Positions 1,333-64,000 of a stretch of 64,000 nucleotides of DNA are shown one piece after another; position 1 is the stretch's first letter; the number at the start of each line of letters is the position of its first letter. Source of the DNA: Clostridiales bacterium (GTDB lineage: Bacteria > Bacillota > Clostridia > Peptostreptococcales > Anaerovoracaceae); assembly GCA_022763735.1 (NCBI GenBank), contig JALEQY010000065.1, positions 5,662 to 69,661 of the forward strand, in the 5' to 3' direction. Both the position numbers and the translations under genes were made by a program. The notes beneath the pieces were generated by a model. It searched no databases and was not told where the DNA came from. It saw nothing but the letters and a program-made list of their open reading frames with translations.

Positions 1333-2466
1333 TTACTTCCTTTCTTTTCTTTCTAATTCCCACTCCATATCTCTTACCAGATCCCGTTTAACGTTCATTC
1401 TGTGGTTTGCATACAGCTGCGTTGTAGTTACCTGCTCGTGATCCATGAGAGCCTGTACGTCAAATATTGAATTGCCACGTCCAATCAGGCTTGTCGCAGC
1501 CGTTGCTCTGAGCTTATGAGGGCTGTATCCTGAATCCCTAGATGTCGACATACCTATCGAGGTATACTTTTTAACAAGCTCTCTGATCTGACGTTCAGTC
1601 ATCCGTTTCCCCTGAAGTGAAAGAAAGAGAGCATCTCTGTGGATTTCCTCCAGCTTATCGTCATGTGCACGTTCATTATCTATATAATCAGTCAGAACCT
1701 CTGTAACAGATACATTCAGAGGCATCATAACCTCCTTGTCCCTCTTCCTGTATATCCTGAATTCTCCTCTGCTGAAATTAAATGAGGAAACATTCAGCTG
1801 CTGAAGCTCAAACAATCTCAGACCGTATGTAAGAAACAGCATCAGTATGGCTTTATCTCTCTTCCTGGTTTTTTCCCAGTACTGTCTCTCCTTAGGTGTA
1901 AGGTGACTGCCTGTGGATACAGCGTCCAGCATTATCATGACTTCATCGTCCTGCAGAGCCTTAATCTCACGTTCGCTGGCTTTTGGAACCTTTATCGGAT
2001 CAAACCCGTCCGTAATATTCTTATCAATGAGTTCATCCCTGTAAAGCTGTTTGAACATGACAGACAGTGATGATTTTTTTCTTGCCAGAGTTTTGCTGCC
2101 GTTTTCGTATATCAGAATTTCAGAATCCTTTTCAACGGTATATTTCCTGCAGTAATCGATAAAAACATTAACATCCACTGCTTTAATTCTATTAAATTCC
2201 TCAAGTTTTATGTCAGATATTTCCGAAGCATCCGTCAGATTCGTCTCATCGATCAGATACCGGCAGAAAAACCTGATGTCATTCAGATACGACAGTCTGG
2301 TCATCGGCAGAACATTACCTTTGAGATACGCGAAAAATCCTCTCAGGAATCTAGGAAGCTGGTTCTGTATATCTTCGCATTTAGAAACGATTTCATGCTC
2401 TCTGAGCACTATATTGTCAGGCTTATCGCTTCTGTTATTGATTTTTACAGTTTTGTTGCCAGCCAT
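1333..2466 (-). CDS. tyrosine site-specific recombinase, XerC/XerD-like
   Basis: 377-aa ORF. The C-terminal catalytic region has HKLRATAATSL (HxxR) and MDHEQVTTTQLY (H...Y nucleophile). A GAGGA RBS precedes the ATG. It overlaps the miaA stop by 22 nt. Confidence 0.85.
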   Translation of the reverse strand: MAGNKTVKINNRSDKPDNIVLREHEIVSKCEDIQNQLPRFLRGFFAYLKGNVLPMTRLSYLNDIRFFCRYLIDETNLTDASEISDIKLEEFNRIKAVDVNVFIDYCRKYTVEKDSEILIYENGSKTLARKKSSLSVMFKQLYRDELIDKNITDGFDPIKVPKASEREIKALQDDEVMIMLDAVSTGSHLTPKERQYWEKTRKRDKAILMLFLTYGLRLFELQQLNVSSFNFSRGEFRIYRKRDKEVMMPLNVSVTEVLTDYIDNERAHDDKLEEIHRDALFLSLQGKRMTERQIRELVKKYTSIGMSTSRDSGYSPHKLRATAATSLIGRGNSIFDVQALMDHEQVTTTQLYANHRMNVKRDLVRDMEWELERKERK

Positions 2467-20291: not shown

Positions 20292-22835
20292 TTAGAAATG
20301 AAGCTCTGTCCTCTGGATCAGATCTTTCTGAAGTGCTTTTCCCAGATCAACGAAGTAAGCGCTGTAGCCTGCCACACGCACCAGCATATCCTTGTAGTTT
20401 TCAGGCTTTTTCTGTGCGGCTCGCATTGTATCTGCACTCATGATGTTGAACTGTACATGCATTGCACCCTTGGCCAGGTATTCATCAATGAAGCTGATGA
20501 GATTGTCCCTGCCTTCTGTACCGGCAACAGCTTCCTGAGGAAATTTCATATTCAGCAGTGTTCCGTTGGTTGCAATGCTGTGGTCTACCTTTGTAACGGA
20601 ATTTGCCAGAGCTGTAGGTCCTTCTGTATCGTGAGAGCCTCTGTCGGTATGGACAGGTCCCAGATTGTCGGAAATCGCTTCACCATTTTTTCGTCCATCG
20701 AGGGATGCATTGGTGTTGAGACCCATACCCACGTTGGCACTTACAGAATAAACACCCGGGTTGAATTCCCCTCCTCTTACAGTAGGTCTGCCGGCAACAT
20801 GTCTGCAATAGCACTCGAACATATATTTAAACAGTTCGTCAGCGTAATCGTCATCGTTGCCGTAGTGATGCACCTTAGGACCATTGACCAGCGCATATAG
20901 AACCTCGTGCCCTTTCCAGTTGTCCTTCACTGCCTGCAGCAGCTGACTGCCGGTAAAACGTTTCTCTTCGAATACCAGCTGCTTTATTACTGCCAGAGTA
21001 TCTGCGCATGTGGCAAGACCGCTGGCCTGGGGTCCTATACCGTTATACTCAGCTCCGCCTTCGGTCAGATCCACACCAGTATTCATGCAGTCTTCAAAGA
21101 ATGCGGAAACATAAGGCAGCGGTTTGAGAGCCCTGTGCGCCTTATCTATAATGTTCAGGCTGCTGCACATCTGGTCTGCCCAGTATTCGAACTGTGCATC
21201 GACGCTTGCCAGAACCTCGTCAAAGTTTTCATAGGTATCCAGACTTCCTGTATCTGGACCAAGATGTTCGCCCAGAGCACCGCATTTTTCCCATCTTGCA
21301 CAGTGAGGGCCGCAGTCAAGACATCTGCCGCCGTTAATAACCATTTCCATCATTTTAGCGGCATTCACATACGCTGCATCGTGCCACCCGTACTCTTTGC
21401 CCGGAAGATCCGGCTCTACACATCCTACTACTGCATAATCGCGGGCTTCCTCAAGACTCATTCCCTTTTTCATCATCGCTCTGATTGTGGGAGCATCGTT
21501 GAAAATTTTAGGATGACCGTAACCGGCACGGATACATTCGACTGTTTTTACCTTGAGCTCGTACGGTGTATTCTCGTGCATTCGTACCAGCAGCCATGGA
21601 TTCATCATTCTCGTGTGAGCAGAAGCTTCCAGCATGAGCATTGTCAGGTCATTTGTCACATCGTTGCCTGCTCTGTCGACACCTCCGATGGTCAGACACT
21701 CACCGCCGAAACCGCGGCCCTGACGTACCTTTACAGTTCCTCCGTCTTTGAGCTTTGTCGGATTATTCATCTTGACATACAGCACTTCGATAAGCTCCAG
21801 TGCGAATTCCTTGGTGATGGTGCCTGCCTGGATATCAGCCTCATAATACGGGTACAGCCACTGATCCATACGACCGTAGGAGATGGAATGACCATTCCCC
21901 TCAATCTGTGTAAGTGTGGTTGCGAAGTTGAACAGCTGTATCGCCTGCCAGAAGTTTCGTGCCGGTCCTGCGGCGATCTGACGGCAGTTTTCTGCCATAG
22001 CTTCCAGTTCCTTTTTTCTCTGCGGGTCAGCTTCTGCAGCAGCACGTTCGTCAGCCAGCGCACTGTAACGCAGAATATATCTCACCGAAGCCTTCAGAGA
22101 GATTATCATAGCTTCGTAAAAGTCACGTTTATCGGCATAATCAGGGTCTCTCTTGGTCAGCTTTGACAGATTGGCTTCAGCTTCTTCAATCAGACCGTTA
22201 AAACCAGTTCTCATCAGCTTGGCATAATCCATTACCAGATGGCCTACGCCGGCATAATGATACAGATTCGTCTGAAAAATCTTCTTACCAGCTTCTGAGC
22301 CTTTGAGCTGGTCTTCATCAAGCCCTGCATTGATAAGATCGTCAACTGTTTTTCCTTCCCAGTATCGGCACAGCTCTACGATTTCTTTTCTCTCTTCATC
22401 GTTTCTGATATAGAACTGATCGTGTTCCCTTTCCTCAAAGGGCTCATTGAGGACCTCATTAATTATCCAGCTGACGGAAAACTCCGGGTAAATAGGTGAT
22501 GCCTTGGCAGGGGCTGCTATCTCACCCAGCACCAGATCCTCGTCATAGATGTCCAGAGTCACATGATCCAGAATGTTTTCAAAGGCCCTGGCGCATTTGA
22601 TCTTGATTGTACAGCTGTCATATTTTTTATAGGCTTCTGTTACCAGACGCAGTCTTTCTACGTCGACATCGTACTGTCTGTCGAGAAAAGTCTGTCTCAG
22701 ATGGTTGACTCTCGGATAAGGCGACCAGTCGCCGTGGTTCACCTGATATCCCAGACTGTATGTATGATCATATTTTTCTGTACCGCAGGCGCTGCAGTGC
22801 ACCTGATCGTGTTCATTACTGTTCATAAAACCCAT
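20292..22835 (-). CDS. glycyl radical enzyme (PFL superfamily, eliminase-type Cys loop), substrate unknown
   Basis: The start was trimmed to ATG 22835 (MGFMNSNE) behind AAGGAGGAAT, because the track ORF to 22928 overlaps the activase. The C-terminal glycyl motif is VRVAGYSAYF and the Cys loop is VVGCVEPDLPG. The protein is ~847 aa. Confidence 0.93.
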   Translation of the reverse strand: MGFMNSNEHDQVHCSACGTEKYDHTYSLGYQVNHGDWSPYPRVNHLRQTFLDRQYDVDVERLRLVTEAYKKYDSCTIKIKCARAFENILDHVTLDIYDEDLVLGEIAAPAKASPIYPEFSVSWIINEVLNEPFEEREHDQFYIRNDEERKEIVELCRYWEGKTVDDLINAGLDEDQLKGSEAGKKIFQTNLYHYAGVGHLVMDYAKLMRTGFNGLIEEAEANLSKLTKRDPDYADKRDFYEAMIISLKASVRYILRYSALADERAAAEADPQRKKELEAMAENCRQIAAGPARNFWQAIQLFNFATTLTQIEGNGHSISYGRMDQWLYPYYEADIQAGTITKEFALELIEVLYVKMNNPTKLKDGGTVKVRQGRGFGGECLTIGGVDRAGNDVTNDLTMLMLEASAHTRMMNPWLLVRMHENTPYELKVKTVECIRAGYGHPKIFNDAPTIRAMMKKGMSLEEARDYAVVGCVEPDLPGKEYGWHDAAYVNAAKMMEMVINGGRCLDCGPHCARWEKCGALGEHLGPDTGSLDTYENFDEVLASVDAQFEYWADQMCSSLNIIDKAHRALKPLPYVSAFFEDCMNTGVDLTEGGAEYNGIGPQASGLATCADTLAVIKQLVFEEKRFTGSQLLQAVKDNWKGHEVLYALVNGPKVHHYGNDDDYADELFKYMFECYCRHVAGRPTVRGGEFNPGVYSVSANVGMGLNTNASLDGRKNGEAISDNLGPVHTDRGSHDTEGPTALANSVTKVDHSIATNGTLLNMKFPQEAVAGTEGRDNLISFIDEYLAKGAMHVQFNIMSADTMRAAQKKPENYKDMLVRVAGYSAYFVDLGKALQKDLIQRTELHF

Positions 22836-22860
22836 TCTATATTCCTCCTTCACGGTTGAT

Positions 22861-23811
22861 CTACTCTTTTTCTCTGGTACCCACGAGACAGTGGATGTCT
22901 CTGCTGTTGAAATAGTCAGCCAGCTCATTTATATGCTTCTGCAGTGATCTTCTGTTGAACTTAACGTCCTCCATCTCGTACGGCATGCCCAGAGACTGGT
23001 ACTTCTCCACTCCCAGCCGCATGAAGCTGAGCAGCTGCAGAGTCCTGACACTGTCTTTCAGCTCGTTTATGATAAAATCTGCCGTTGCCTCCATATTCTC
23101 CATATCATCGTTGACACCCGGAATAACCGGAATCCTCAGTATAAGCTCACGTCCTACCTCTGCAAGATGTCTGAGATTGTCAAGGATCCTGCGGTTGTCC
23201 ACACCGGTGTACTGTTTATGCTTTTGAGGATCCATGTGCTTTATGTCGGATATCAGCAGATCTGTAACCGGAAGTATCTTCTCGATTTCCTGCCATTCTG
23301 TATGGAAAGTGGACTCGCAGCACGTGTGGATGTTCTCAGCTCTGCAGGCTGCGAAAAGCTCTGCCACAAAGTCGCTCTGCATCAGAGGATCACCGCCGGA
23401 TACAGTCACGCCTCCACCGGAGCGCTCATAATATCCTCTGTCCCTGAGAATTGCTTTCATGCATTCCTCGACCGTCATGGCTTTGCCCCACTGTCTGATA
23501 GCCTCAGACGGACACATATCAGAGCACTCCAAACAGTTTGTGCACTTAACCCTATCTATGCTGACAAGTTTCTGTCTGTAAAACTGTAGCGTGTCTTCCT
23601 GGGGACATGCCTGTTCACATATTCCGCAGTTTTTATGTGAAATGCATTTTTTCCTGTAGACGCCCGGCTGAATATAAGGCTTCATGCCTTCCGGGTTGCT
23701 GCACCATCTGCATCTCAGTGGACAGCCCTTGAGGAAAATCTCTGTCCGCATTCCCGGTCCGTCATGAATTGTGAATCTCTGTATGTTGAATACGATACCC
23801 TGAACTGACAA
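22861..23811 (-). CDS. glycyl-radical enzyme activating protein (radical SAM)
   Basis: 316 aa with a TTG start behind AGGAGG. The CPLRCRWCSNPE (CxxxCxxC) motif follows GPGMR. Two extra ferredoxin-like motifs are present, CISHKNCGICEQACP and CTNCLECSDMCP. Confidence 0.93.
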   Translation of the reverse strand: MSVQGIVFNIQRFTIHDGPGMRTEIFLKGCPLRCRWCSNPEGMKPYIQPGVYRKKCISHKNCGICEQACPQEDTLQFYRQKLVSIDRVKCTNCLECSDMCPSEAIRQWGKAMTVEECMKAILRDRGYYERSGGGVTVSGGDPLMQSDFVAELFAACRAENIHTCCESTFHTEWQEIEKILPVTDLLISDIKHMDPQKHKQYTGVDNRRILDNLRHLAEVGRELILRIPVIPGVNDDMENMEATADFIINELKDSVRTLQLLSFMRLGVEKYQSLGMPYEMEDVKFNRRSLQKHINELADYFNSRDIHCLVGTREKE

Positions 23812-23841
23812 TTCCGCTTCCTCCTTTTATATCATGACAAT

Positions 23842-23850
23842 ATTATATCA
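23842..23850 (-). promoter_or_regulatory. candidate extended -10 element (TGATATAAT) for the activase-GRE operon
   Basis: The minus strand reads ...CCCTGATATAATATTG..., ~31 nt upstream of the activase TTG start. No good -35 hexamer occurs at 16-18 nt spacing, which suggests an activator-dependent promoter. Confidence 0.35.
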
Positions 23851-23886
23851 GGGAAATTCCGTGTAATATAGTAGCCATTCTACCTA

Positions 23887-23902
23887 TTTTTTGTACAAAA
23901 AA
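23887..23902. promoter_or_regulatory. perfect 16-bp palindrome TTTTTTGTACAAAAAA
   Basis: Read directly from the sequence. Its centre lies ~50 nt upstream of the candidate -10 element. One half doubles as the U-tract of the LuxR-gene terminator. Confidence 0.3.
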
Positions 23903-23935
23903 GCTTCCGTGACGAGATGATTCTGTTACGGAAGC
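23897..23935 (-). terminator. rho-independent terminator after the LuxR-type regulator gene
   Basis: The minus strand reads GCTTCCGT-(17-nt loop)-ACGGAAGC followed by TTTTTT, beginning 10 nt after the stop at 23946. Confidence 0.7.
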
Positions 23936-23945
23936 GTTAAAATTG

Positions 23946-25067
23946 CTATTGTTTTGTACGATCCAGCAGGCTCTGGAGCTGGTATCTGCTTTTGACGCCA
24001 CATTTGGAATAAATGTTCTGCACATGCTTTTTGACTGTATGATAGCTTATTATCAGTTCGTCAGCTATCGCCTGATAGGTGAGTCCCTGATACAGCAGCT
24101 CTGCCACACGATGCTCCGCATGGGTCAGTGGAAGCTCTTCGCCGATTTTCTCCGGAAGCTGATGTTCCTCTTTTTCGGAAATAGTAATCCAGTGATACCT
24201 GTCGATGATGCCGTGAGAATAGCTCTGATCATAGGTGTAGATCTTGAATATGTATCCTCTGATGACTTTTGTTCTGACACGGGTCTGTGCAGAATCCTCC
24301 CGATCTGCAGGTTCACCGCCTTCGATAAGAAAAGGAAGCCATGCGCACGGCGTACTGCTGTCGATCTGGTTTTCGGCTTCCGGTCCCAGTATCTCTATGA
24401 GATAATTCAGCGCCAGTCTGTTATAACTCATGATGTGCATGAAATCATCGGTCACCAGATAAGCCTTCTCACCGGATGAAATAATCTCATCCTGAATACT
24501 GGAAATGATTTTTTCCTGCTCATGCTTCTTGAAATTCTTATATGAACTGGCCACGTAGACATAGATGTTTTCCAGTTCCTTCATTTCGTCATCGGTGAAA
24601 TCTCCATCAGTCAGGCTTTTGAAAAAATATATCCTGATATATGCATTGATGCCGAAGGCCAGGGTCACACTGTAATGCATCCCGAAATTCTTCTGTATAA
24701 AATGAACGTATTCCGAATCGTCGTACTCATCCTCAGGTATGAGGTCCGTGGATTTGTATATTCTGGGTTCCACATTGAAATAGTCAAGCCTGTCCCTCAC
24801 TGCTTCTTCATAGATAGTTCTGCTTATTATGTCATCTGCCGCAAATTTCGAGTATGGATGATTTTCACTGCCGATGGTGATGCCGCTTCTGTCCGTCCAT
24901 GACAGGAAGCCGTTTGTGGTATCAAAACAGAGAATCAGCACGTGATCCAGCCCGAAATTCCTGTATAACGAATCCAGCAGCACATTGCTGAAGAATTCTC
25001 TCGCTGATATCTGACGTTCAGACATCTCCGAAAAAAATGCCATCTGCCCACTGTCAATATCCTTCAT
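23946..25067 (-). CDS. LuxR-family transcriptional regulator with a large uncharacterised N-terminal domain
   Basis: The start was trimmed to ATG 25067 (MKDIDSGQ) behind CAGGAGG. The C-terminal HTH is LTHAEHRVAELLYQGLTYQAIADELIISYHTVKKHVQNIYSKCGV. Confidence 0.85.
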   Translation of the reverse strand: MKDIDSGQMAFFSEMSERQISAREFFSNVLLDSLYRNFGLDHVLILCFDTTNGFLSWTDRSGITIGSENHPYSKFAADDIISRTIYEEAVRDRLDYFNVEPRIYKSTDLIPEDEYDDSEYVHFIQKNFGMHYSVTLAFGINAYIRIYFFKSLTDGDFTDDEMKELENIYVYVASSYKNFKKHEQEKIISSIQDEIISSGEKAYLVTDDFMHIMSYNRLALNYLIEILGPEAENQIDSSTPCAWLPFLIEGGEPADREDSAQTRVRTKVIRGYIFKIYTYDQSYSHGIIDRYHWITISEKEEHQLPEKIGEELPLTHAEHRVAELLYQGLTYQAIADELIISYHTVKKHVQNIYSKCGVKSRYQLQSLLDRTKQ

Positions 25068-25092
25068 AACCGCCTCCTGAAAAACACATACT

Positions 25093-25944
25093 CTACGGTC
25101 TTCTGTCCATGCACGGCACCTTGCTCTGACACAGACCGCATCCGACTTCCCTGTATTCTGAAGTATCAATTCTGTCACTCAGCTCATCAAAACACGTCAG
25201 TAGATGAGACGCGCACTTCTCCTTATCGTGTCCTCTTTCCGAAATCGCCCGCTTCGGGCATCTGCGTATACATGCACCGCATATACCGCTCCTGAAATAC
25301 AGACACCAGTCATAGTGACCGCGATCGCCTCTGGAAGTGACATCCATATCAGCCTCAACAATCAACGAAGTAAATCTGACTGCCATTCCTTTTTCTGTGA
25401 TAAACCCGTCACTGAGTCCAAAGGTTCCCATGCCGCAGGCAAACGCATTATGCCTGTGGGACCATCTCGATGCTCTGCCGTAATCACCCGAATCCATCAG
25501 CGAAAACTCAGGCAGCAGTTCAGGTGCAGCCCACCTGACACCCATCGCATCAAGTTTTTTACCAACCACTGACAGGTATTCCCTGATAAGCTTATCCCAC
25601 TCACCACGGGAAACAGCCCAGCTGGCACATGGAAATTCGCGTTCTCTGCTCTGCATCATTCTCGTTTCTTCAGCCATCGGAAAGACTATGGAAATCGCAC
25701 GAAGTCTGCTGCTGTCAGGCATTTCATCATATTTCAGTGCGAAGACTTCAGCAGGAGTCCAGTGGAATTCTCCTATATGCTCTTTGAGGAAACCATAGTA
25801 GTCATCATCACCGGCAGCTGTTCCAGCCAGCGGATTTTCCCACATGGGAACATCCGGTTTTCCCAGTACCGCAAAATTATTAGACTGAAGCTCATTAAAA
25901 GCTTCAGTCACTGCATTATATACCTTATCAGTAATATTGTTCAT
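25093..25944 (-). CDS. QueG/reductive-dehalogenase-like Fe-S protein (4Fe-4S dicluster domain)
   Basis: 283 aa. WSHRHNAFACGMGTFGLSDGFITEKGMAVRFTSLIV resembles the QueG/RdhA core. It is followed by CGACIRRCPKRAIS and GCGLCQSKVPC. There is no gap to the upstream CNNM gene. Confidence 0.65.
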   Translation of the reverse strand: MNNITDKVYNAVTEAFNELQSNNFAVLGKPDVPMWENPLAGTAAGDDDYYGFLKEHIGEFHWTPAEVFALKYDEMPDSSRLRAISIVFPMAEETRMMQSREREFPCASWAVSRGEWDKLIREYLSVVGKKLDAMGVRWAAPELLPEFSLMDSGDYGRASRWSHRHNAFACGMGTFGLSDGFITEKGMAVRFTSLIVEADMDVTSRGDRGHYDWCLYFRSGICGACIRRCPKRAISERGHDKEKCASHLLTCFDELSDRIDTSEYREVGCGLCQSKVPCMDRRP

Positions 25945-50221: not shown

Positions 50222-50308
50222 TGGTGCCGGCGATGGGGGTCGAACCCATACGGTGTCGCCACCACGGGATTTTGAGTCCCGCACGTCTGCCAATTCCATC
50301 ACGCCGGC
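50222..50308 (-). tRNA. tRNA-Leu (anticodon CAA), CCA encoded
   Basis: The minus strand reads GCCGGCGTGATGGAATTGGCAGACGTGCGGGACTCAAAATCCCGTGGTGGCGACACCGTATGGGTTCGACCCCCATCGCCGGCACCA. It folds with a 7-bp acceptor stem, an anticodon stem-loop CGGGA-CTCAAAA-TCCCG, a long variable arm and a T arm ATGGG-TTCGACC-CCCAT. Confidence 0.93.
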
Positions 50309-55016: not shown

Positions 55017-55062
55017 AACAGAAAACGTGTATAAATCATAAGTCTGTATGATTCATACACGT
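55017..55062 (-). terminator. rho-independent terminator after the alcohol dehydrogenase gene
   Basis: The minus strand reads ACGTGTATGAATCATA-loop-TATGATTTATACACGT followed by TTTTC, 15 nt after the stop at 55077. Confidence 0.65.
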
Positions 55063-55076
55063 CCTGTCGTATCATA

Positions 55077-56204
55077 TCAGAAAGGAGTGACTTCACTCAG
55101 TATTGCTGCTATGTCTTCAGCTCCGGCTGCCCTCGGGTTTGTGGCAGTACAGGTGTCTGCAAGTGCTGCCTGAACCATTTCATCTTTAATGTTTTTCACA
55201 GCCTCCGGATCAACATCCAGTCTCTTTAACGTATCAGGGATTCCGAATGCACGTTTCATCTCTTCAATTCTTCGTATAAGGCTGTTGACTGCTACTACTG
55301 TATTAGCATACGGAAGCCCTATGAGTTTAGACATGCGCTGATATTTCCTGGCGCTCAGAGTCTTCTCACAGGCACCTGTATCAGCATTAAAAGCAATTAC
55401 GTGAGGCAGTACCAGAGCATTTGCCCTGCCGTGGGATATATGAAACTTACCTCCTATTGTATGGGCAATGCTGTGACATATACCCAGTCCCGCAGTATTA
55501 AAAGCCATGCCGGCGAGGCAGGATGCATTATGTACCTTTTCCCTAGCCAGCAGATCGTCCCCGTTCTTATATGCCTGAGGCAGGAATCTCATCAGAAGTG
55601 TTACTGCTTTCTCTGCCAGCGCGTCAGTGAAATCGGTAGCCTCTGTTGAAACATACGCCTCAAGAGCATGTGCCAGCGCATCCATCCCTGTATCTGCCGT
55701 AATGGCCGGCGGCACTGTCCTTACCAGTTCCGGGTCGAGTATCGCCACCATCGGCTGCAGTGCTTCACTCACCAGGGGGTATTTGACACCCTCCTGAGCA
55801 TTCGTAATTACAGAGAATTTCGTCACCTCAGAACCTGTACCGCTTGTGGTCGGAATGGCGAAGCATTCTTCCACCTTTACCATTCCAAGCTGGCACGACA
55901 GTTCTCTTATGGCTTTGGCTGCATCTATCGATGATCCTCCGCCTACCGCAATCATGACTTCGGCCCTGCATTCGTCAAGGCATCTGATACCTTCTGCCAC
56001 CACCTCAACCGGAGGATCCGGCACTATGCTGCTGAACACATATACATCACACGTGTCCAGATATCCTTTTATCCTGTCAACAACACCTGAATTTTTCATG
56101 AATTCATCGCACACTATCAGAACACGCTTGTTATTAAGCTGCTGAAGTCTGCCCAGTGAATTTTCACCAAAAAACACATTTGTGCTGATACTGAATTCCT
56201 TCAT
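55077..56204 (-). CDS. iron-containing (group III) alcohol dehydrogenase, EutG/PduQ-like
   Basis: The start was trimmed to ATG 56204 ([13 protein letters not shown]) behind AGAGGA. It has the [10 protein letters not shown] motif and the metal-binding His cluster [17 protein letters not shown]. Confidence 0.9.
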
Positions 56205-56220
56205 TTTCTTGTCCTCTTTC

Positions 56221-56544
56221 CTAATGTGATGTCCCTGCAACATTCAGGATCACAACACCTGCCAGTATAAGCAGAATCCCGAAAATACCCGCCGGAGTTA
56301 TACCTTCTTTAAAAATCAGTACAGATACCAGGGTGGATACAACTATACCAAGTCCTGACCATAATGCATATGCGAAGCTGAGATTGATTCCTTCAAGAGA
56401 TCTTGAAAAGCTGTAAAAACAGATTACATACGATATTATCACTATGATCGAAGGTCCGAGTCTGGTGAATCCCTCCGTTGATTTCAGAAAACTGGTGCCC
56501 ACAAGCTCACCTGCTATAGCAGCTGCCAGAAACAAATTGTGCAT
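56221..56544 (-). CDS. small multidrug resistance (SMR/EmrE-Gdx) family transporter
   Basis: 107 aa with four TM segments. The conserved membrane Glu is in [10 protein letters not shown], and the AYALWSGLG motif is present. Confidence 0.9.
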
Positions 56545-56565
56545 TGTGCATTCAGCCCCTTTCTG

Positions 56566-57876
56566 TCATCGTCTGTTATAGCCAGTGTGGAGAAGTCTGT
56601 GAGAAAGCTCACCCAAAGGCTTACCATAAAATTCACTGTATACGCGTGCAATTTCCGGATTATCAGTTGAATTTCGCAGTGTCATTCTCTCATCTTCAGA
56701 ATACATACTTTTAATTCTGCTCTTTCTTATATCATCGGTTACTGGTATTGTGTGCATCTGAGGCTGTCCTGCACCGCTTATACAGCCTCCCGGGCATGTC
56801 ATCACTTCTATAAAATGATAATCGGAAATATCTCCATCAAGGAATTGAGCTGCATTGGCAGTCCCATATATTACAGCCACCTTGATAATGCTGTCGCCAA
56901 TATTCAAAGATGCTTCTTTTATACCTTTCATACCTCGCACATCTTCGAAATGCAGCAGACTGTCAGGAGCTTTTTCTCCCGTCAGGCTCTGGTATGCCAT
57001 TCTGAGTGCAGCTTCCATGACACCGCCTGTATTACCGAATATCACACCGGCCCCGCTGCCTTTACCAAGAATAGAATCAAATGGCATATCCGGCAGGCTT
57101 GCAAAATCAATATTCTTCTCTTCCATCAGCTGAGCCAGTTCCTTAGTGGTAATAACATAGTCATTATCGCGTATTTCCGGTTTTCCCAGAAGAATTCCTG
57201 CATCATTGAGCTCAGGTCTTCTGATTTCTGCCTTTTTTGCAGTACAAGGTGTCACGTTGACTGTTATGATAGAAGAAGGATCCAGCCCGGCTTTTGCTGC
57301 AAAATAAGATTTTATTGTTGCACCCTGCATACCGATAGGGCTTTTGGCAGTGGACAAATGCGGTAGCATTTCGGGATAGAATTTTTCTACATATTTTACC
57401 CAGGCAGGACAGCAGCTGGTGAACTGTGGCAGAGGACCGCTGCCGGTCAGGATTCTGCTGAGAAGCTCACATCCCTCTTCTATTATTGTCAGGTCAGCTG
57501 AAAAAGTCACATCGAACACATAATCTGCTCCAAGTGTCTTAATTGCAGCAACCATTTTTCCTTCTGAATACACGCCTGCTTTGTCAAGAAAAGCATCTCC
57601 TATACCAACTCTCACAGAAGGTGATGTGGAAAAAACTACGATCTTTGACTTGTCAGTCAGCGCATCCTTAACCTGTTGAATTTCAGGCTTTACACGTATG
57701 GCCTGCTCCGGGCATGCTGCACTGCACTGCCCGCAATTTATACATATATAACCGTCTACTCCTGTATTCTCATCACATGCAGCCAGACAGTGTCCGCACT
57801 CGACGCATAAACTGTCATCTTTTATTATTGCAGGATTATCGGGTTTTACAGAGATACAGCGTTCATATCTTTCCAT
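56566..57876 (-). CDS. hydA: [FeFe]-hydrogenase, monomeric, with an N-terminal 2x[4Fe-4S] ferredoxin domain
   Basis: The start was trimmed to ATG 57876 behind AAAGGAG. The H-cluster motifs are FTSCCPAW, VTPCTAKKAE and VMTCPGGCISGAGQP. The ferredoxin motifs are CVECGHCLAAC and CINCGQCSAACP. Confidence 0.92.
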   Translation of the reverse strand: MERYERCISVKPDNPAIIKDDSLCVECGHCLAACDENTGVDGYICINCGQCSAACPEQAIRVKPEIQQVKDALTDKSKIVVFSTSPSVRVGIGDAFLDKAGVYSEGKMVAAIKTLGADYVFDVTFSADLTIIEEGCELLSRILTGSGPLPQFTSCCPAWVKYVEKFYPEMLPHLSTAKSPIGMQGATIKSYFAAKAGLDPSSIITVNVTPCTAKKAEIRRPELNDAGILLGKPEIRDNDYVITTKELAQLMEEKNIDFASLPDMPFDSILGKGSGAGVIFGNTGGVMEAALRMAYQSLTGEKAPDSLLHFEDVRGMKGIKEASLNIGDSIIKVAVIYGTANAAQFLDGDISDYHFIEVMTCPGGCISGAGQPQMHTIPVTDDIRKSRIKSMYSEDERMTLRNSTDNPEIARVYSEFYGKPLGELSHRLLHTGYNRR

Positions 57877-57901
57877 ATATATGCTCCTTTCTCTCTGTAC
57901 T

Positions 57902-59896
57902 TTACAGCCCAAGACCTGAGCGTTTTTCCATAATTACAGCTTCGAGTGTATCAGCAGATGTTTCAATATCTGTATCTATAATCAGCTGTCCGCCAGTTAT
58001 ATCCTTCATCTTATCTGTCAGGATATCAACAGCAACAGGGCTTCCTGTTACAAAAGGCGGAAGTCCGAGATGAACAGTGAATCCAAGTGCCAGAGCAAAT
58101 GCACCATCAGCTAGAGCCTGTTCCTCAAGCCACTGCGGCGCAGACATAACTATTGGAAGTTGCGGGATATCAACTCCCAGATCTGCGGCAATTTCTCCTG
58201 CTACAAGCTCCATACGGCCAATAGCCAGACACGGCCCGAAATTTAGAACCGGCGGGATTCTCAGAGATTTACATACTTCTTTAAGACTGTCACCGGCCAG
58301 CTCTGCGGCTTCAGGGCTCATAAGTCCGCAGTTTTCAAGACCACCACATGTACAGCCGGCAGAAAGTACAAGTATGTTCTTTTTTATCAGCTGTTTTGTA
58401 AGCTCTACAGTATAAACATCGTGCCCTTTAGCACGCAGGTTTGAACACCCCACTACTCCTGCTATTCCTTTGATTTTACCTTGCTTAATAAGGTCGATAA
58501 GCGGTCCATAGCTTCCGCCAAGGAACTGTTTCAGTGTTACCTCAGTGACACCGGTAATTGCATTATGTACACCATGTGATGCCATTGGATTTATTCTGTT
58601 TTTGCTCTGCGATACCATTTGAGTCAGAGCATTCTGCAGGTCAGTCATATCAGCTTCTCCACCAGCAAGGCAGCGACTCAATGCACTAACCAGCTTCTGA
58701 GTATTATCCGGTGTCATGCTGCTGCGTCTGGATCTGTATGAGTCAATTGCCTTGTCAACGATGCTTCTACTGATTTCGCTTCTGTCTTCCCATGTAAAAT
58801 GAACGTAATCAGCATTGCGTTTCTTGGCAACATCGTCCAAGCAGATCTGTGGTATTTCAAGATTATCACATATAGGTTCAATTCCCGGCAGTGTACAGTT
58901 GAATTCAGATACGATAAGATCTATGCAGCCTGTTGCCAGCACAGCCTCGCTTGTATAGTTGTTTCCCGCATGACCACAGAACGCATCGGTTCCGGCAGCT
59001 TTCCTCAACTGAAAATCCTGACCGACACATGTACATCCAACAAGCTTTACAGCTTTCGCACCTGCTGCTTCAGCCCTGTTAATTACATCTTCAGAAACCA
59101 GATATTCCTGAAGATCACTGAAAAATGCATGCTGATGTCCTGTTATCATAATATTGACGCATTCCGGATCGACCACCTGGATTCCAACAGGTTCAAAACT
59201 TATTTCTCCTTCTCCCATCAATACGTCGTTAATCAGGTTTGTCAGAACCAGTCCGTAAACGCCCGTAGAAATACCAAGTCTCAGACATTGATGAAGCATA
59301 TTGACAGGGTCTGAATTCAAGTTAGTTGAGGATTTTACAACTGCATTGAAGATTTCATCCTTCGCACCACCAGGGAGAATATCAATTTTCTCCCATGCCT
59401 GACTTCTCAATGGATAAGCTATTTCTTTCACCAGCTCCATTTTTTCATCAGCAGGTCTGTATAAATCCTGAAGCACTTTGTCAGCTATTTTCTCCGCTTT
59501 GTCCCAGTCGCTGCCACCTTTTACATCCAGCATGTCAGCAAGTCTCAAAAGGGCGTTTTTGCTCCTTATTCCTGTCTTGGCCTGTGCAGATTTCTTTAAC
59601 TGTTTTGCAGCATTTTCCACTACATGGATATAGCATCCGGAGCCTGCGGCAACAGAGCGCAGAAAATTTCTGACAGCGATAGTATCTGCATCCGCTCCGC
59701 ATACACCTCTGGGTCTTGCAGGCGAAATACGACAAGGACCGTTGGAGCATAATCTGCAGCATATACCCTGAAGTCCATATCCGCATTTATTTTCCTGATT
59801 TATCATTCTATGGTGAGACGTTTCAATGTCCAGTTCCTTTATGAAATTTTCCAGTACTTTGTCTGCATCATTGCAGATAGTTATCTTCTTATCCAT
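57902..59896 (-). CDS. cooS: anaerobic Ni-dependent carbon monoxide dehydrogenase catalytic subunit
   Basis: 664 aa. The N-terminal CGYGLQGICCRLCSNGPCRI...GVCGA gives C-x7-CC-x2-C-x4-C for the D/B clusters. Later segments with candidate C-cluster ligands are ITGHQHA, VGCTCVG, EFNCTLPG, VVGCSN, SAGCTCGG and FGPCLA. Confidence 0.9.
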   Translation of the reverse strand: MDKKITICNDADKVLENFIKELDIETSHHRMINQENKCGYGLQGICCRLCSNGPCRISPARPRGVCGADADTIAVRNFLRSVAAGSGCYIHVVENAAKQLKKSAQAKTGIRSKNALLRLADMLDVKGGSDWDKAEKIADKVLQDLYRPADEKMELVKEIAYPLRSQAWEKIDILPGGAKDEIFNAVVKSSTNLNSDPVNMLHQCLRLGISTGVYGLVLTNLINDVLMGEGEISFEPVGIQVVDPECVNIMITGHQHAFFSDLQEYLVSEDVINRAEAAGAKAVKLVGCTCVGQDFQLRKAAGTDAFCGHAGNNYTSEAVLATGCIDLIVSEFNCTLPGIEPICDNLEIPQICLDDVAKKRNADYVHFTWEDRSEISRSIVDKAIDSYRSRRSSMTPDNTQKLVSALSRCLAGGEADMTDLQNALTQMVSQSKNRINPMASHGVHNAITGVTEVTLKQFLGGSYGPLIDLIKQGKIKGIAGVVGCSNLRAKGHDVYTVELTKQLIKKNILVLSAGCTCGGLENCGLMSPEAAELAGDSLKEVCKSLRIPPVLNFGPCLAIGRMELVAGEIAADLGVDIPQLPIVMSAPQWLEEQALADGAFALALGFTVHLGLPPFVTGSPVAVDILTDKMKDITGGQLIIDTDIETSADTLEAVIMEKRSGLGL

Positions 59897-59924
59897 AACA
59901 TAACCTCATAACTTCTGTTAAATA

Positions 59925-59954
59925 CAGGGGTGGGCATACATACACCCACCCCTG
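59925..59954 (-). terminator. 10-bp GC-rich hairpin between BMC-H and cooS (terminator or attenuator)
   Basis: The minus strand reads CAGGGGTGGG-TGTATGTATG-CCCACCCCTG followed by TATTTAAC. It lies 20 nt after the BMC-H stop and 28 nt before the cooS ATG. Confidence 0.55.
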
Positions 59955-59973
59955 CATTTACAAGTGTTATAAT

Positions 59974-60306: not shown

Positions 60307-60960
60307 TTATTTTTTAATTTTAATTTTTGTTGATGAATTAATGTTCATAGCATTGGCTTCTTCTGTGTCAACATGACATTCCAGTGCCGATGCATCATTA
60401 GCCCTTACAGCTACATTTGCATATACTCCGCCTCGAGGACCTTCGATTTCGATATCTACTATCTGCCCGTCATGAACACCGTAGTTTACGGCATCCTGAG
60501 GTGTCATATGTATATGTCTCTGTGCCACTATCAGCCCTTCCTTTGTCTGAACTGATCCTTTCGGACCGATTATCGTTATTCCCGGACTTCCTGCCAGATC
60601 CCCTGACAGCCTTGCCGGTGCTGTGACACCAAGCTTGAAACCGTCACCTGTAAGTATCTCAACCTGTGTTTTACTTCTAACAGGTCCCAGCACTCTTACT
60701 TTTTCTATAGCGCCTTTCGGTCCGCATATAGTTACTGTTTCTTTACATGCGAACTGTCCCGGCTGCGACAGATCCTTTATCGGCGTAAGCTTATAGCCTG
60801 TTCCGAACAGAATATCCAGATCTGTCTGTGAAAGATGCAGATGGCGATTTGAAACTCCTACCGGTATTCCCTCCGGTTTCTGAGTATCTGATGATGCAGA
60901 ATTTGACTGCATTGCTTCAAGAAGCAATCTCAGAACAGCTTCATAATTTTCATTTGCCAT
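60307..60960 (-). CDS. pduL: phosphate acyltransferase PduL
   Basis: 217 aa with two PduL repeats (VGVSNRHLHLSQ and AQRHIHMTPQDA). There is an N-terminal amphipathic helix, YEAVLRLLLEAMQ. Confidence 0.93.
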   Translation of the reverse strand: MANENYEAVLRLLLEAMQSNSASSDTQKPEGIPVGVSNRHLHLSQTDLDILFGTGYKLTPIKDLSQPGQFACKETVTICGPKGAIEKVRVLGPVRSKTQVEILTGDGFKLGVTAPARLSGDLAGSPGITIIGPKGSVQTKEGLIVAQRHIHMTPQDAVNYGVHDGQIVDIEIEGPRGGVYANVAVRANDASALECHVDTEEANAMNINSSTKIKIKK

Positions 60961-60966
60961 CTGTTC

Positions 60967-62634
60967 TTATTCTCCTTTCATTGCTTTTACCAGCGCATTG
61001 ATCATGTCAGTCAGCTGTGCAGCATCGATTGGCTGATCGCTTGCTGACGGTGCTGCCGCATTGGTGCTTCCGCAGCCGCATCCTGTGCCATATGTGATGC
61101 CACAGTTACCATTCTGATATTCTGCTGGTGACAGATATTTGGCACTGCTGCCGCATGATGGTGATGCAGGTGGTACCGGAACCGGTGTTCCGCAGCTTGT
61201 AGTTGTCATACATGGTGCTGCTGCTGAGCATCCGGAATTGAGTTCAGGATGATTGAATGTCGGATCATCAGCTGCCAGAGTCGAACAATTCTTTGTTCCG
61301 TATGCAACCTTCTTGATATTTATAAGATGGAGTGGGCTTACATTCTCTGAAACTGAGCTTCCTCCCCATGTTCCGCATCCAAGTGTGAATGATGGGAGCA
61401 GACCTGTGCTTGCTCCTGTTCCACCCATGCTGCTTCCTGTATTGACAAGAATCCTTGATGCCGGCTTTCTCGTAAACTCTAAAACAACATTTCTGTCTTC
61501 TGTGTGCAGACTCATAGTATGTCCTATACCGTTCTGTAACAGTTCAATACTGAGTTCACAGGCTTCATGCCAGTCTTTTACAACATAGAATCCCAGAACA
61601 CTTGTCAGTTTTTCAAATGAAAGCGGATAACCATCACCTACACCACCCTGAGGTCCGATGAGAACCTTGGTGTTTTCAGGAATGGCAATTCCTGCTGCTG
61701 ATGCAATTACAAACGGTGAACGTCCTACGAATTTAGCATTCATTGCATGTCCGTTTTTGAAAAGCAGTTTGCAGACCTTGTCAGTTTCTTCCGGTGTCAT
61801 GAAGTAGCCGCCCTGACGCTTAAGTTCAGCAATAACGGCTTCTTTGTTGCATTCTTCACATATAATCGACTGCTCTGAAGCACAGATAGTACCATAGTCA
61901 AATGTTTTGCTTGCTATGATATTAGTAACTGCCTGTCTTACATCAGCTGTACGTTCAATGTATGCAGGTGAATTTCCGGCTCCTACACCCAGCGCAGGCT
62001 TTCCGGCGCTGTATGCAGCTTTTACCATTCCAGGTCCGCCTGTCGCGATAATCATCTTAACTTCTTTGCTGTGCATCAGTTCATTAGTAGCCTGCATTGA
62101 AGGCATTGTGATGCATCCGATGATGTTGGCAGGTGCTCCTGCTTCCACTGCAGCTTCGTACATGAGCTGAGCAGCTTTCTGTGTACATTTTGCTGCTGAA
62201 GGATGAGGTGAGAACACGATAGCATTACGTGCTTTAATTGCAATTATTGATTTGAAAATCGCAGTCGATGTAGGGTTTGTCGAAGGAACGATTCCCATCA
62301 GCAGTCCTACAGGATCTGCAACATCCATTGTTCTGGCAACAGGATCTTCACTTATGATACCGCATGTTTTCATATCTTTGATTGCATCATAGAGCAAAGT
62401 GGACGCCATATGATTCTTGTAAGTCTTGTCCTCTACCTTGCCGAAGCCTGTTTCCTCAACAGCCATCTGTGCCAGAGAAACAGCATTTGCTTCTGCTGCT
62501 CTGACCATATTTCGAATGATTCTGTCTATCTGATCTTCATTGTATGTTGCGATCTGTTCTGTTGCAATCTGACCGAGTCTGGCCAGATTTCTCGCTTCTT
62601 GTACAGATCTTAAATCATAATCCATGTTTTCCAT
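60967..62634 (-). CDS. CoA-acylating aldehyde dehydrogenase (EutE/PduP type) with a ~100-aa Cys-rich C-terminal tail
   Basis: The start was trimmed to ATG 62634 (MENMDYDLRSVQEAR) behind AGGAGG. The catalytic Cys lies in DYGTICASEQS. The tail carries 8 Cys and ends in IDAAQLTDMINALVKAMKGE. Confidence 0.92.
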   Translation of the reverse strand: MENMDYDLRSVQEARNLARLGQIATEQIATYNEDQIDRIIRNMVRAAEANAVSLAQMAVEETGFGKVEDKTYKNHMASTLLYDAIKDMKTCGIISEDPVARTMDVADPVGLLMGIVPSTNPTSTAIFKSIIAIKARNAIVFSPHPSAAKCTQKAAQLMYEAAVEAGAPANIIGCITMPSMQATNELMHSKEVKMIIATGGPGMVKAAYSAGKPALGVGAGNSPAYIERTADVRQAVTNIIASKTFDYGTICASEQSIICEECNKEAVIAELKRQGGYFMTPEETDKVCKLLFKNGHAMNAKFVGRSPFVIASAAGIAIPENTKVLIGPQGGVGDGYPLSFEKLTSVLGFYVVKDWHEACELSIELLQNGIGHTMSLHTEDRNVVLEFTRKPASRILVNTGSSMGGTGASTGLLPSFTLGCGTWGGSSVSENVSPLHLINIKKVAYGTKNCSTLAADDPTFNHPELNSGCSAAAPCMTTTSCGTPVPVPPASPSCGSSAKYLSPAEYQNGNCGITYGTGCGCGSTNAAAPSASDQPIDAAQLTDMINALVKAMKGE

Positions 62635-62672
62635 AATTATGGCACCTCCTTTATTTTTTATAATATGCTGCA

Positions 62673-63293
62673 TCAGCTGTAGTATTTTCTGAATTCCTCA
62701 ATCAGAGCTGTTTTGTTTGCTTTTGATACATCTCTTCCTGAAATTCCAAAGTCTTTGTATTCTCTGGCAAGATTTCGCAGTTTTACAACCTTGCATCTGT
62801 TGATGATTTCGACAGCCTTGTCAATACCCTTTTCGGCTACCAGTCTGTCCATATCATCCTTGTGCATCTCAGCAGCATCCTTGATTTCATCAGTTTCTGC
62901 CGGCATTGCAGTTTCCTGCAGCTCAGCAGTTTCAGATGGTTCATTATTATCTGTATCCGGTTCTTCTGCTATTTCATTGAACTCCTCTGTTTTTTCCGAG
63001 TGAAGCTCTGCCAGAGGTACTGGTGATATAATGGTTTCACCCAGTTCGCTATGAGGTCTTGGAATTACATGCTGAGAAACAAGCAGTTCTGCCCCGAGTC
63101 TGTTAACGGCTGCAGCTGCTGCATCTATCGATGCTTTAACTGCGGCAACATCACCTGTAATAGTTACAGTTACAAGTCCACCTCCAACGAAGGTCCTTTC
63201 AAGAAGTCTCACTTCCGCCGCCTTCATCATAGCATCGGCACTTTCTATAGCAGCAAGAAGACCTCTGGTTTCTATCATTCCAAGTGCTTCCAT
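62673..63293 (-). CDS. BMC-H shell protein with a 114-aa C-terminal extension
   Basis: 206 aa. The BMC domain (ALGMIETRGLLAAIESADAMMKAAEV...GGGLVTVTITGDVAAVKASIDA...QHVIPRPH) is followed by an acidic linker and a basic helical C-terminus. AAGGAGG lies upstream. Confidence 0.9.
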   Translation of the reverse strand: MEALGMIETRGLLAAIESADAMMKAAEVRLLERTFVGGGLVTVTITGDVAAVKASIDAAAAAVNRLGAELLVSQHVIPRPHSELGETIISPVPLAELHSEKTEEFNEIAEEPDTDNNEPSETAELQETAMPAETDEIKDAAEMHKDDMDRLVAEKGIDKAVEIINRCKVVKLRNLAREYKDFGISGRDVSKANKTALIEEFRKYYS

Positions 63294-63308: not shown

Positions 63309-63953
63309 TTAGTGGGTAGCGTAGAATACCTTCACTTTGTCAGGTGAGCCGAAAGAAAGCTTAGCGCCGTTCTGGAAGAAAAGTGCGTCTCCAGGGTGAG
63401 CAGTAAATACTGTTCCATCCTTTTCTACAGTCAGTGTGCCTTCAACAACATAATAGATTTCTTCACATGCTACATCCCATGGGAAGCTGCATTTTTCTAT
63501 AGTCATGAAACCTGCATTCATCGAAGAACCATCAGATGAGCCGATAAGTTCATTATAGAACACTTTGTCTGAAGGATTCCCAGTGTCAAGAGGTTCCCAT
63601 TTTGCAGTATTGCCTCTTACAAGCTTTACGTAACCTTCGGGATCTTTCTCTGATACATATGGTACATCCTGACATGCAGCCATTACATTGCCAAGCATTC
63701 CTTTTTCCATCAGCGCAGTCAGTGCTTTATAAATCAGTTCACTGTCTATACCGCTCTGGCTCTGGGCTGCCGGCTTTTCTGCAGTATTATCACTGCAGCA
63801 TTTGCATGGTGCATCAGTAGAGAATTCAATACCACGTTCAGCAGCTGCATCTTTGGCAGATGGTGTGATTAAAGTATCTGCATCAATATACATTACCTTT
63901 TCACCTTTTTGAGCTAAAGCTTCAACTTCTTTAGCACAAATCAGCTTTTTCAT
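63309..63953 (-). CDS. EutQ-like cupin protein
   Basis: The ATG at 63953 (MKKLICAKEV) has an AAGGA RBS, whereas the track start at 63971 has none. The C-terminal cupin is EIYYVVEGTLTVEKDGTVFTAHPGDALFFQNGAKLSF. The N-terminus carries an LITPSAKDAAAERGIEF motif. Confidence 0.8.
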   Translation of the reverse strand: MKKLICAKEVEALAQKGEKVMYIDADTLITPSAKDAAAERGIEFSTDAPCKCCSDNTAEKPAAQSQSGIDSELIYKALTALMEKGMLGNVMAACQDVPYVSEKDPEGYVKLVRGNTAKWEPLDTGNPSDKVFYNELIGSSDGSSMNAGFMTIEKCSFPWDVACEEIYYVVEGTLTVEKDGTVFTAHPGDALFFQNGAKLSFGSPDKVKVFYATH

Positions 63954-64000
63954 GCCGTCACATCCTTTCATATTATTTTGTATGACCTGTATTATTCATC

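Follow-up and report, generated by a model that had tools for sequence, protein, structure and literature searches.

Choline cleavage by the glycyl-radical enzyme (GRE) CutC is the main microbial source of trimethylamine (TMA), which has been tied to cardiovascular risk. The GRM1 (cut) type of bacterial microcompartment (BMC) locus typically contains two aldehyde dehydrogenases (AldDHs), PduS, PduV, EutQ, EutJ and an efflux transporter for multidrug resistance (MDR) (Axen 2014). Here we describe a 64-kb stretch of contig JALEQY010000065.1, referred to throughout as the window, in which a gut Lentihominibacter (Anaerovoracaceae) encodes the distal end of a GRM1 microcompartment operon for choline utilisation. 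The operon shares with the described cut loci (Craciun & Balskus; Axen 2014; Ferlez 2019) the genes for CutC, its activase CutD, two AldDHs, PduL, an iron-dependent alcohol dehydrogenase (Fe-ADH, hereafter ADH), PduS, PduT, EutJ, EutQ, PduV and an SMR/MDR transporter, in the order found in related loci, but differs from them in having cooS and hydA, encoding a CooS-type carbon monoxide dehydrogenase (CODH) and an [FeFe]-hydrogenase, between the last BMC-H shell gene and the SMR and ADH genes.

Genetic coupling of a CODH to a hydrogenase is known from the hydrogenogenic CooS-CooF-Ech/Coo systems of R. rubrum and C. hydrogenoformans, in which, as in principle here, CO + H2O -> CO2 + H2 is possible. 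However, those systems comprise a clade F CooS with a His/Lys pair, the mediator CooF, the maturases CooC, CooT and CooJ, and a membrane-bound, energy-conserving [NiFe] hydrogenase; none of these components is encoded here, and neither the window nor any related locus that was examined has CooF, an Ech/Coo [NiFe] hydrogenase or a clade F CooS. A recent survey (eLife 2026) describes hydrogenase association as almost exclusive to CODH clades E and F. Adjacency of cooS to an [FeFe]-hydrogenase gene has nevertheless been reported for structural group C-4 (Inoue 2019, PMC6344411), and a 'Fe-only hydrogenase type' of cooS context, of unknown function and with 'pflAB' nearby in 17 of 24 cases, has been catalogued in gut genomes of Lachnospirales, Oscillospirales and Peptostreptococcales (Katayama 2024, PMC11338639). 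Hence the pairing itself, which an initial annotation of this DNA had compared with the CooS-CooF-Ech systems, has a precedent. The window resembles these contexts in that the catalytic subunit of the hydrogenase is encoded directly downstream of cooS, but its CooS lacks the Cys x4 insertion between Tyr and the C-cluster His that marks group C-4 (the Anaerobutyricum group has INCCGNCGPDCHNSC), and its neighbour is CutC in a microcompartment operon, not pyruvate formate-lyase (PFL). Neither Inoue 2019 nor Katayama 2024 mentions microcompartments or choline, and no CODH or hydrogenase in a GRM1 locus was found in the searched literature and supplements, the only near precedent being an iron-hydrogenase homologue in one atypical PDU locus (Axen 2014 supplement). 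The annotation's view that a BMC locus with both enzymes was undescribed therefore agrees with the literature searched. Also not found described there were the identity of the neighbouring 'pfl' gene as CutC or a distinct eliminase-type GRE, sometimes with PduS/PduT and BMC shell genes, and the fact that HydA-coupled CooS is monophyletic beyond group C-4.

The edge of the window lies ~30 nt upstream of the EutQ gene, and the remaining operon (cutC, cutD, shell genes, PduS/PduT and others) lies beyond position 64000. The whole locus is visible on gut-metagenome contigs that are identical to the window (L001-L006), where the order is AldDH-GRE-activase-BMC-PduV-222-aa protein-EutJ-BMC-EutN-PduS-PduT-like BMC-T-EutQ-BMC-H-AldDH-PduL-BMC-H-CooS-HydA-SMR-ADH. 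On these contigs the GRE is CutC (TIGR04394, 1672 bits against a cutoff of 1050) and the activase is CutD (TIGR04395, 553 bits against 360), the signature of GRM1; the shell proteins (BMC-H and BMC-T, plus BMC-P) and the core enzymes AldDH, PduL and ADH are likewise all encoded. The PduT-like protein has the CPGKY motif, which sets an iron-sulfur (FeS) cluster in the shell pore. Exact copies of the host's proteins are found on 58 to ~200 public contigs each, the Lentihominibacter species being known from metagenome-assembled genomes (MAGs).

All genes of the window are on the minus strand. The four-gene block of cooS, hydA, SMR and ADH, and the distances between its members, were reproduced by gene calls, family profiles and direct reading of the gaps: 77 nt between BMC-H and cooS, 25 between cooS and hydA, 21 between hydA and SMR, and 16 between SMR and ADH. 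The redox pair thus lies, as had been proposed, within the microcompartment operon, downstream of its last BMC-H gene and upstream of the core ADH. However, the SMR and ADH genes, which had been counted as part of an anomalous block, are routine constituents of cut loci, since typical GRM1 content includes them; only cooS-hydA is unusual. ADH homologues with 67-79% identity are found at the same position in related GRM1 loci, and the SMR in most, though not all, of them; it is the 'MDR efflux transporter' typical of GRM1, and a quaternary amine or TMA is a plausible substrate.

The identification of the first gene of the pair as a CooS-type CODH with its N-terminal Cys motif was borne out by TIGR01702, the Prismane family and alignment to solved CODHs. 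The motif C38-x7-C46C47-x2-C50-x4-C55...C66 is intact, these residues corresponding to the B- and D-cluster cysteines C39, C47, C48, C51, C56 and C70 of CODH-II, and none of them varies in an alignment of 57 sequences. The six C-cluster ligands are also all kept (H254, C290, C334, C484, C515 and C556, equivalent to CODH-II H261, C295, C333, C446, C476 and C526), so a loss of ligands, which would have undermined the identification, has not occurred. By comparison, Tyr89 and Gln593 stand in place of the CODH-II acid/base pair His93 and Lys563, and the resulting Y/H/5xC/Q pattern is invariant in 80 of 80 related CooS sequences. The picture of a canonical CODH consequently stands for the metal-cluster ligands but not for the catalytic acid/base pair. 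A complete C-cluster, Tyr/Gln and a type II D-cluster form the signature of clade C (Inoue 2019, PMC6344411), to which we assign the protein by this residue signature and the C-x7-C spacing; judged from its residues, it is not a canonical fast CODH.

The closest PDB match is CooS-V of C. hydrogenoformans (7b7q, clade D; E value 7e-103, 32% identity, template modelling (TM) score 0.88), and the PDB matches to the window CooS included no structure from clade C. An AlphaFold model of the protein (pLDDT 85.9) superimposes on solved CODHs with TM scores of 0.83-0.88. CooS-V shares the Tyr at the His93 position, but has Glu in place of Cys295 and retains Lys563, whereas the window CooS keeps the Cys, as Cys290, and has Gln593; identity as a hybrid-cluster protein or a CooS-V-like protein was rejected, given the family scores and the retained Cys290. 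It has been argued that clades C and D have low CO activity or none, and clade C enzymes are described as lacking adjacent maturases (eLife 2026 survey), whilst a clade C CooS-CooF1 complex of T. kivui has low CO:ferredoxin activity and is required for growth on CO (PMC8683389). The window CooS resembles the clade C CooS-CooF(-FNOR) systems, such as T. kivui CooSF1 and C. autoethanogenum cooS1, in its C-cluster ligands, its Tyr/Gln pair and the lack of an adjacent CooC, and is ~60% identical to homologues in a CooF/FNOR context in other genomes (e.g. L087; not the T. kivui or C. autoethanogenum proteins themselves). It differs from these systems in having a hydrogenase as its partner, in lacking an N-terminal CxxCxxC motif and in falling on a separate branch. 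Family scans of the 64 kb likewise recovered none of cooC, cooF, acsB, Ech or hydEFG amongst the window's genes, in agreement with the initial annotation for the first four; yet the lack of CooC and CooF nearby, which it had considered odd, is typical of this branch of clade C.

A single surface loop of the window CooS contains a helical insertion of ~40-45 aa (residues ~393-440; window positions 58577-58720), modelled as two amphipathic helices with a pLDDT of 55-65. Despite its likeness to the C-terminal peptide of the AldDH, a role as an encapsulation peptide found no support, because CooS proteins embedded in microcompartment operons on contigs L091 and L093 are without it and the stand-alone proteins of L015-L018 have it; its hydrophobic moment is no outlier among CooS helices. 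Unrelated helical insertions occupy the same loop in L015-L018, in Clostridium aciditolerans (L048/L049) and in Aminipila (L080), and the position seems, on these alignments, to be an insertion hot spot.

The second gene of the pair encodes a group A [FeFe]-hydrogenase, with two CxxCxxCxxxC motifs forming a 2x[4Fe-4S] domain, an H-domain with the L1-L3 motifs and proton-path residues, and a fused C-terminal small-subunit domain. Its 436-aa reading starts at an ATG behind an AGGAG ribosome-binding site. The hydrogenase had been credited with all three H-cluster motifs and the 2x[4Fe-4S] domain, and this is correct save that L2 contains TPC, not the usual MPC: L1 is TSCCPAW, L2 is TPCTAKK and L3 is EVMTCPGGCISGAGQP. 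The TPC of L2 and the GAGQP of L3 (usually GGGQP) are found in all 22 partner hydrogenases, which also keep the H-cluster motifs and the eight cysteines of the ferredoxin domain. The window enzyme is of the M2 type, and its best relatives in the PDB are Desulfovibrio HydAB, HydA2 of the hydrogen-dependent CO2 reductase (HDCR; 7qv7_D, E value 3e-103) and CpI. As there is no N-terminal extension in the window sequence or in the partner alignment, the enzyme is read as cytoplasmic. HDCR (FdhF-HycB-HydA2) offers a parallel, in that a soluble [FeFe]-hydrogenase is wired to a C1 oxidoreductase; however, the C1 enzyme of HDCR is a Mo/W formate dehydrogenase joined through HycB-type FeS linkers, making this an analogy and not homology. 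The HydA of the window and that of the closest MAG (L007) are ~12 residues shorter between the [4Fe-4S] motifs (57700-57800, residues ~25-60) than the other partners.

In order to establish how widely the pair occurs, a CooS profile scan was made with one genome per species, yielding 80 loci, and the operon proteins were compared by tblastn. CooS-HydA follows the last BMC-H gene of GRM1 loci in a Lentihominibacter MAG, 'Clostridiales bacterium 16', Hominibacterium faecale, Zhenpiania hominis, Anaerovorax odorimutans and three MAGs, with a CooS identity to the window of 72-86%; contigs L091 and L093 have CooS-HydA-ADH, with no SMR and a CooS ~69% identical. The embedded pair is thus kept in at least nine Anaerovoracaceae lineages, and its adjacency to BMC genes, on whose conservation the initial annotation had made its case depend, extends across the family. 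One GRM1 locus (L092) reads ...PduL-BMC-H-hairpin-ADH, without cooS-hydA or SMR, its hairpin lying between BMC-H and the ribosome-binding site of ADH. Because this locus has the same hairpin and gene order without the pair, cooS-hydA is an accessory insertion just past an ancestral hairpin.

Beyond these loci, the pair is found in Lachnospiraceae (Anaerobutyricum hallii among them), Oscillospiraceae, Butyricicoccus, Enterocloster, Megasphaera and Pseudoramibacter, and its two genes are ~ -7 to +28 nt apart in every HydA-linked locus. A neighbour-joining tree of ~80 CooS sequences separates the HydA-linked branch cleanly from a HydA-less branch, which has the N-terminal CxxCxxC motif and of which one annotated locus (L087) lies in a CooF/FNOR context. 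In this tree the CooS proteins embedded in microcompartment operons are monophyletic, forming a sub-branch of the HydA-linked branch, and are sister to those of a stand-alone pair adjoining thioredoxin reductase and thioredoxin. The phylogeny and gene orders indicate that a pre-existing two-gene module was inserted between the BMC-H hairpin and ADH and has since been conserved across the Anaerovoracaceae. In Enterocloster (L025:13346-15554), cooS-hydA is followed by pta and ackA, and in [Clostridium] clostridioforme (L079:13343-15551) two genes of the same size and position as these follow the pair; this adjacency links the pair to the ATP-yielding acetyl-CoA branch.

Outside the Anaerovoracaceae, the pair has a different companion. 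A GRE is itself present within the flank of 10 of 34 HydA-linked loci and of 0 of 47 HydA-less loci (Fisher p = 7e-5, kinship ignored), and a GRE or activase is found within 10 kb of 18 of the 34, counting the flank-edge CutD hits of L007-L014, but of none of the 47. Nine loci (L020, L022, L023, L030, L034, L035, L050, L059 and L079; e.g. L035:7655-12476) have one orthologous GRE of the PFL2 family, here called GREx, which is always beside cooS-hydA and is 56-91% identical within the group but 33-34% identical to CutC. GREx proteins are 859-872 aa long, ~80 residues beyond the family profile, and score below every NCBIfam equivalog cutoff; a KEGG-based label of PFL was hence rejected, as they belong to the PFL2/eliminase family. 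Accompanying GREx are its activase and, in varying combinations, MetK, DJ-1/PfpI, an aldehyde dehydrogenase, and a PocR sensor kinase paired with an AraC-type regulator; some of the genomes also carry PduS/PduT/BMC/PduV nearby. Gene neighbourhoods therefore show that the pair has been recruited into GRE loci more than once, and the stronger pattern is a tie to GREs generally and not to microcompartments as such.

How cooS-hydA is transcribed may depend on the hairpin in the 77-nt gap. This hairpin and the terminator after ADH, both pointed out in the initial annotation, were recovered by folding (z = -6.1 and -6.7, respectively). In every relative, L092 included, the stop codon of BMC-H is followed by a GC-rich hairpin whose sequence varies but whose position and strength are kept, and comparison of these loci identifies it as an ancestral 3' feature of the BMC-H gene. 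The lack of a -35/-10 pair in the gap was upheld by a sigma-70 consensus scan, which found no promoter-like site in the 77 nt, a weak negative; consensus scans of L008, L009 and L014 likewise found no promoter between hairpin and cooS, again a weak negative, the lone plus-strand site in the L008 gap overlapping the hairpin itself. An Rfam search of the long gaps of relatives identified no riboswitch or known RNA. The apparent gap of 232 nt in L003 was discounted as an assembly gap of Ns with duplicated flanks. Since the core ADH lies downstream of the hairpin both with and without the cooS-hydA insertion, partial termination is the simplest reading, and the hairpin probably acts as an attenuating partial terminator, keeping the distal genes at a lower expression level than the abundant shell protein. 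Of the proposal that the pair is wired into the BMC operon, the location within the operon and the lack of a consensus promoter hold, but co-transcription is something we infer, across a hairpin that is strong and conserved.

Candidate encapsulation signals are found on the core enzymes. On sequence and hydrophobic moment, the AldDH has a Cys/Pro/Ser-rich C-terminal linker followed by an amphipathic, encapsulation-peptide-like helix, QLTDMINALVKAMK, and the N-terminal helix of PduL, YEAVLRLLLEAMQS, is also encapsulation-peptide-like. Compared with homologues from outside microcompartment loci, CooS, HydA and ADH are not extended at either terminus, and as CooS and HydA lack terminal encapsulation peptides, they are probably cytosolic and possibly located at the shell surface. 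The AldDH linker itself (60967-61260, residues ~470-568) has eight Cys residues amid Pro, Ser and Gly (e.g. GCGCGS), which is atypical of encapsulation-peptide linkers; from its composition, it could bind metal.

The function that we tentatively favour, at somewhat less than even probability, is that of a low-potential redox valve, linked to hydrogen, for the glycyl-radical pathways that generate aldehydes, and not CO-based growth. Under this scheme cooS-hydA would be expressed with the cut genes through attenuated read-through of the hairpin, and the D and B clusters of the CooS dimer would exchange electrons directly with the F-clusters of the ferredoxin-like domain of HydA, without CooF; the lack of a CooF neighbour in this CooS branch fits such direct transfer. 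C-cluster chemistry would thereby be coupled to 2H+/H2 in the cytosol. The reaction at the C-cluster would most likely be a slow interconversion of CO and CO2, these being the likeliest substrate pair because the Ni-Fe-S ligands are invariant and a clade C enzyme has shown activity, although the Tyr/Gln pocket may leave it open to other substrates. A more specific form of the idea, that HydA-coupled clade C CooS has no part in environmental CO metabolism and is a dedicated partner of aldehyde-generating GREs, either providing a low-potential H2-to-activase electron route (possibly via the PduT pore cluster and into the microcompartment) or using its altered Tyr/Gln pocket to oxidise CO or a small aldehyde from radical side reactions, with the electrons vented as H2, is speculative and improbable as it stands.

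Several points count against the redox valve. To our knowledge, the choline pathway neither produces nor consumes CO. The replaced residues His93 and Lys563 are those that aid CO oxidation in canonical CODHs, and the lack of CooC from the window leaves both the loading of Ni and activity towards CO uncertain. In A. odorimutans and H. faecale the hairpin has a terminator-like score; at -37.9 kcal/mol that of the window could stop most transcripts, and a non-consensus promoter could be hidden in the gaps of relatives, which reach 417 nt. Some HydA-linked pairs (L015-L018 and L088) have no GRE within 10 kb. Electrons could flow either way between CooS and HydA, and the +99 mV potential reported for the PduT cluster disfavours electron export to H2 by PduT (PMC6325248).

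The arrangement could instead be mere adjacency, an independent unit having landed in a permissive site past a terminator and been inherited vertically in the Anaerovoracaceae. This would accommodate the strong conserved hairpin, terminator-like in L014 and L009, the distances of 235-417 nt from hairpin to cooS in A. odorimutans and H. faecale, the stand-alone pair operon elsewhere and the one GRM1 locus without the pair. Yet the pair lies on the same strand between genes of the operon, with the core ADH (and SMR) downstream and no promoter-like site detected in the gap; it has been retained across divergent lineages, with CooS identity falling as low as 69%, and has a separate association with a second GRE family in other orders. 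We regard adjacency alone as quite improbable, the least favoured of the explanations weighed here. Little more probable is that the enzyme, in the manner of CooS-V and the hybrid-cluster proteins, is a reductase of something other than CO, with reactive nitrogen or oxygen species (NO, hydroxylamine or peroxide) being reduced with H2-derived electrons and the O2-/NO-sensitive glycyl radical thereby shielded. The Tyr at the His93 position is common to clade D, whose CooS-V is the best structural match, low or no CO activity has been argued for both clades in the eLife 2026 survey, thioredoxin reductase and thioredoxin adjoin the stand-alone pair, and an AhpC-glutaredoxin fusion is encoded near the pair in L025; but the hallmark Cys295->Glu substitution of CooS-V is missing, Cys290 and the Ni-Fe-S ligands are invariant, identity to CooS-V is low, and a clade C enzyme does oxidise CO (PMC8683389).

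An explanation we consider unlikely, though it has somewhat more to recommend it than these, is the supply of reductant, whereby HydA would oxidise gut H2 and the FeS chain of CooS, possibly with PduT/PduS, would feed low-potential electrons to CutD or the GREx activase, both radical-SAM enzymes, and so be the 'missing' electron source of glycyl-radical microcompartments. The potential of the H2/H+ couple is low enough for this. The pair clusters with GRE, activase and the S-adenosylmethionine supplier MetK, PduS/PduT are nearby in several architectures, with the FeS pore motif in the PduT-like protein, and the electron source of the activases is an open question according to a review of GRM loci. 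An intact, invariant C-cluster would be left unexplained, however, and a hydrogenase plus a CODH seems excessive for a process needing one electron per activation; CooS and HydA also lack encapsulation peptides, and the related GRM1 locus L092 manages without the pair.

The redox valve, if correct, would join two questions, namely the role of the clade C 'CODHs' and the low-potential electron source or sink of glycyl-radical microcompartments. Clade C 'CODHs' are abundant in gut Firmicutes. A hydrogen-linked module in the cut operon of common gut Anaerovoracaceae could affect both TMA output and gut H2 flux, and the existence of cultured carriers (H. faecale SF3, Z. hominis BX12 and A. odorimutans) makes the hypothesis directly testable.

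The features of this part of the window are listed in Table 1. For the AldDH, the gene caller places the start at 62634, giving a protein of 555 aa.

Table 1. Genes and RNA hairpins at the distal end of the GRM1 operon, in window coordinates.
Feature	Coordinates	Strand	Evidence
EutQ-like cupin, GRM1 accessory	63309..63971	minus	Pfam EutQ, E value 6e-26
BMC-H shell protein, 206 aa, long acidic C-terminal extension	62673..63293	minus	Pfam BMC, E value 2e-26, residues 3-80
CoA-acylating acetaldehyde dehydrogenase (AldDH)	60967..62673	minus	TIGR02518, 761 bits (cutoff 620)
PduL-type phosphotransacylase	60307..60960	minus	Pfam PTAC, E value 1e-79, residues 33-207
BMC-H (EutM-like) major shell protein, 96 aa	59974..60264	minus	Pfam BMC, E value 3e-29; NF012018, 137 bits (cutoff 133)
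GC-rich hairpin in BMC-H/cooS gap	59915..59963	minus	-37.9 kcal/mol, z = -6.1; followed by weak U tail UAUUUAAC
cooS	59896..57902	minus	664 aa; Pfam Prismane (PF03063), E value 2e-144; TIGR01702, 743 bits (cutoff 478)
hydA	57876..56566	minus	436 aa; Fe_hyd_lg_C and fused Fe_hyd_SSU; TIGR02512, 441 bits (cutoff 406)
SMR (QacC/EmrE-like) transporter	56544..56221	minus	107 aa; Pfam Multi_Drug_Res, E value 2e-25
Fe-ADH, CutO/PduQ-like, metabolosome core reductive enzyme	56204..55077	minus	375 aa; Pfam Fe-ADH and ADH_Fe_C
Intrinsic-terminator-like hairpin after ADH, operon end	55017..55068	minus	-25.5 kcal/mol, z = -6.7; U-rich tail TTTTCTGTT

The C-terminal half of the 206-aa BMC-H protein (62673-63000) consists of an acidic low-complexity spacer followed by a basic helical tail of ~60 aa (…KLRNLAREYKDFGISGRDVSKANKTALIEEFRKYYS). 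The tail has no Pfam match; by eye, it resembles small Rho-N/SAP-like helix-extended-helix domains. Elsewhere in the operon, PduS is called as 235 aa (L001:8014-8721) or 347 aa (L005:7678-8721) as against 442 aa (L002:7393-8721) in otherwise identical strains, which suggests strain-level disruption or assembly errors.

Past the ADH terminator lie genes for a GH25 lysozyme, an RND pump, YajC and SecDF, and the remainder of the window is of a housekeeping nature (SecDF, RelA, tRNA synthetases, MutS/MutL and spoIIIA genes), with the addition of another GRE. This is an HpfG-type (2S)-3-sulfopropanediol dehydratase of 878 aa (NF048009, 1677 bits against a cutoff of 1000), whose system (20292-25178, minus strand) includes the activase HpfH (22861-23811) and an adjoining 410-aa LuxR/GerE-type regulator, and is without shell genes. 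A single tRNA gene, the sole Rfam match in the window, lies between the YajC and RND transporter genes (50225-50308, minus strand), and a phage-type integrase gene is located close to the start of the window (1333-2466, minus strand).

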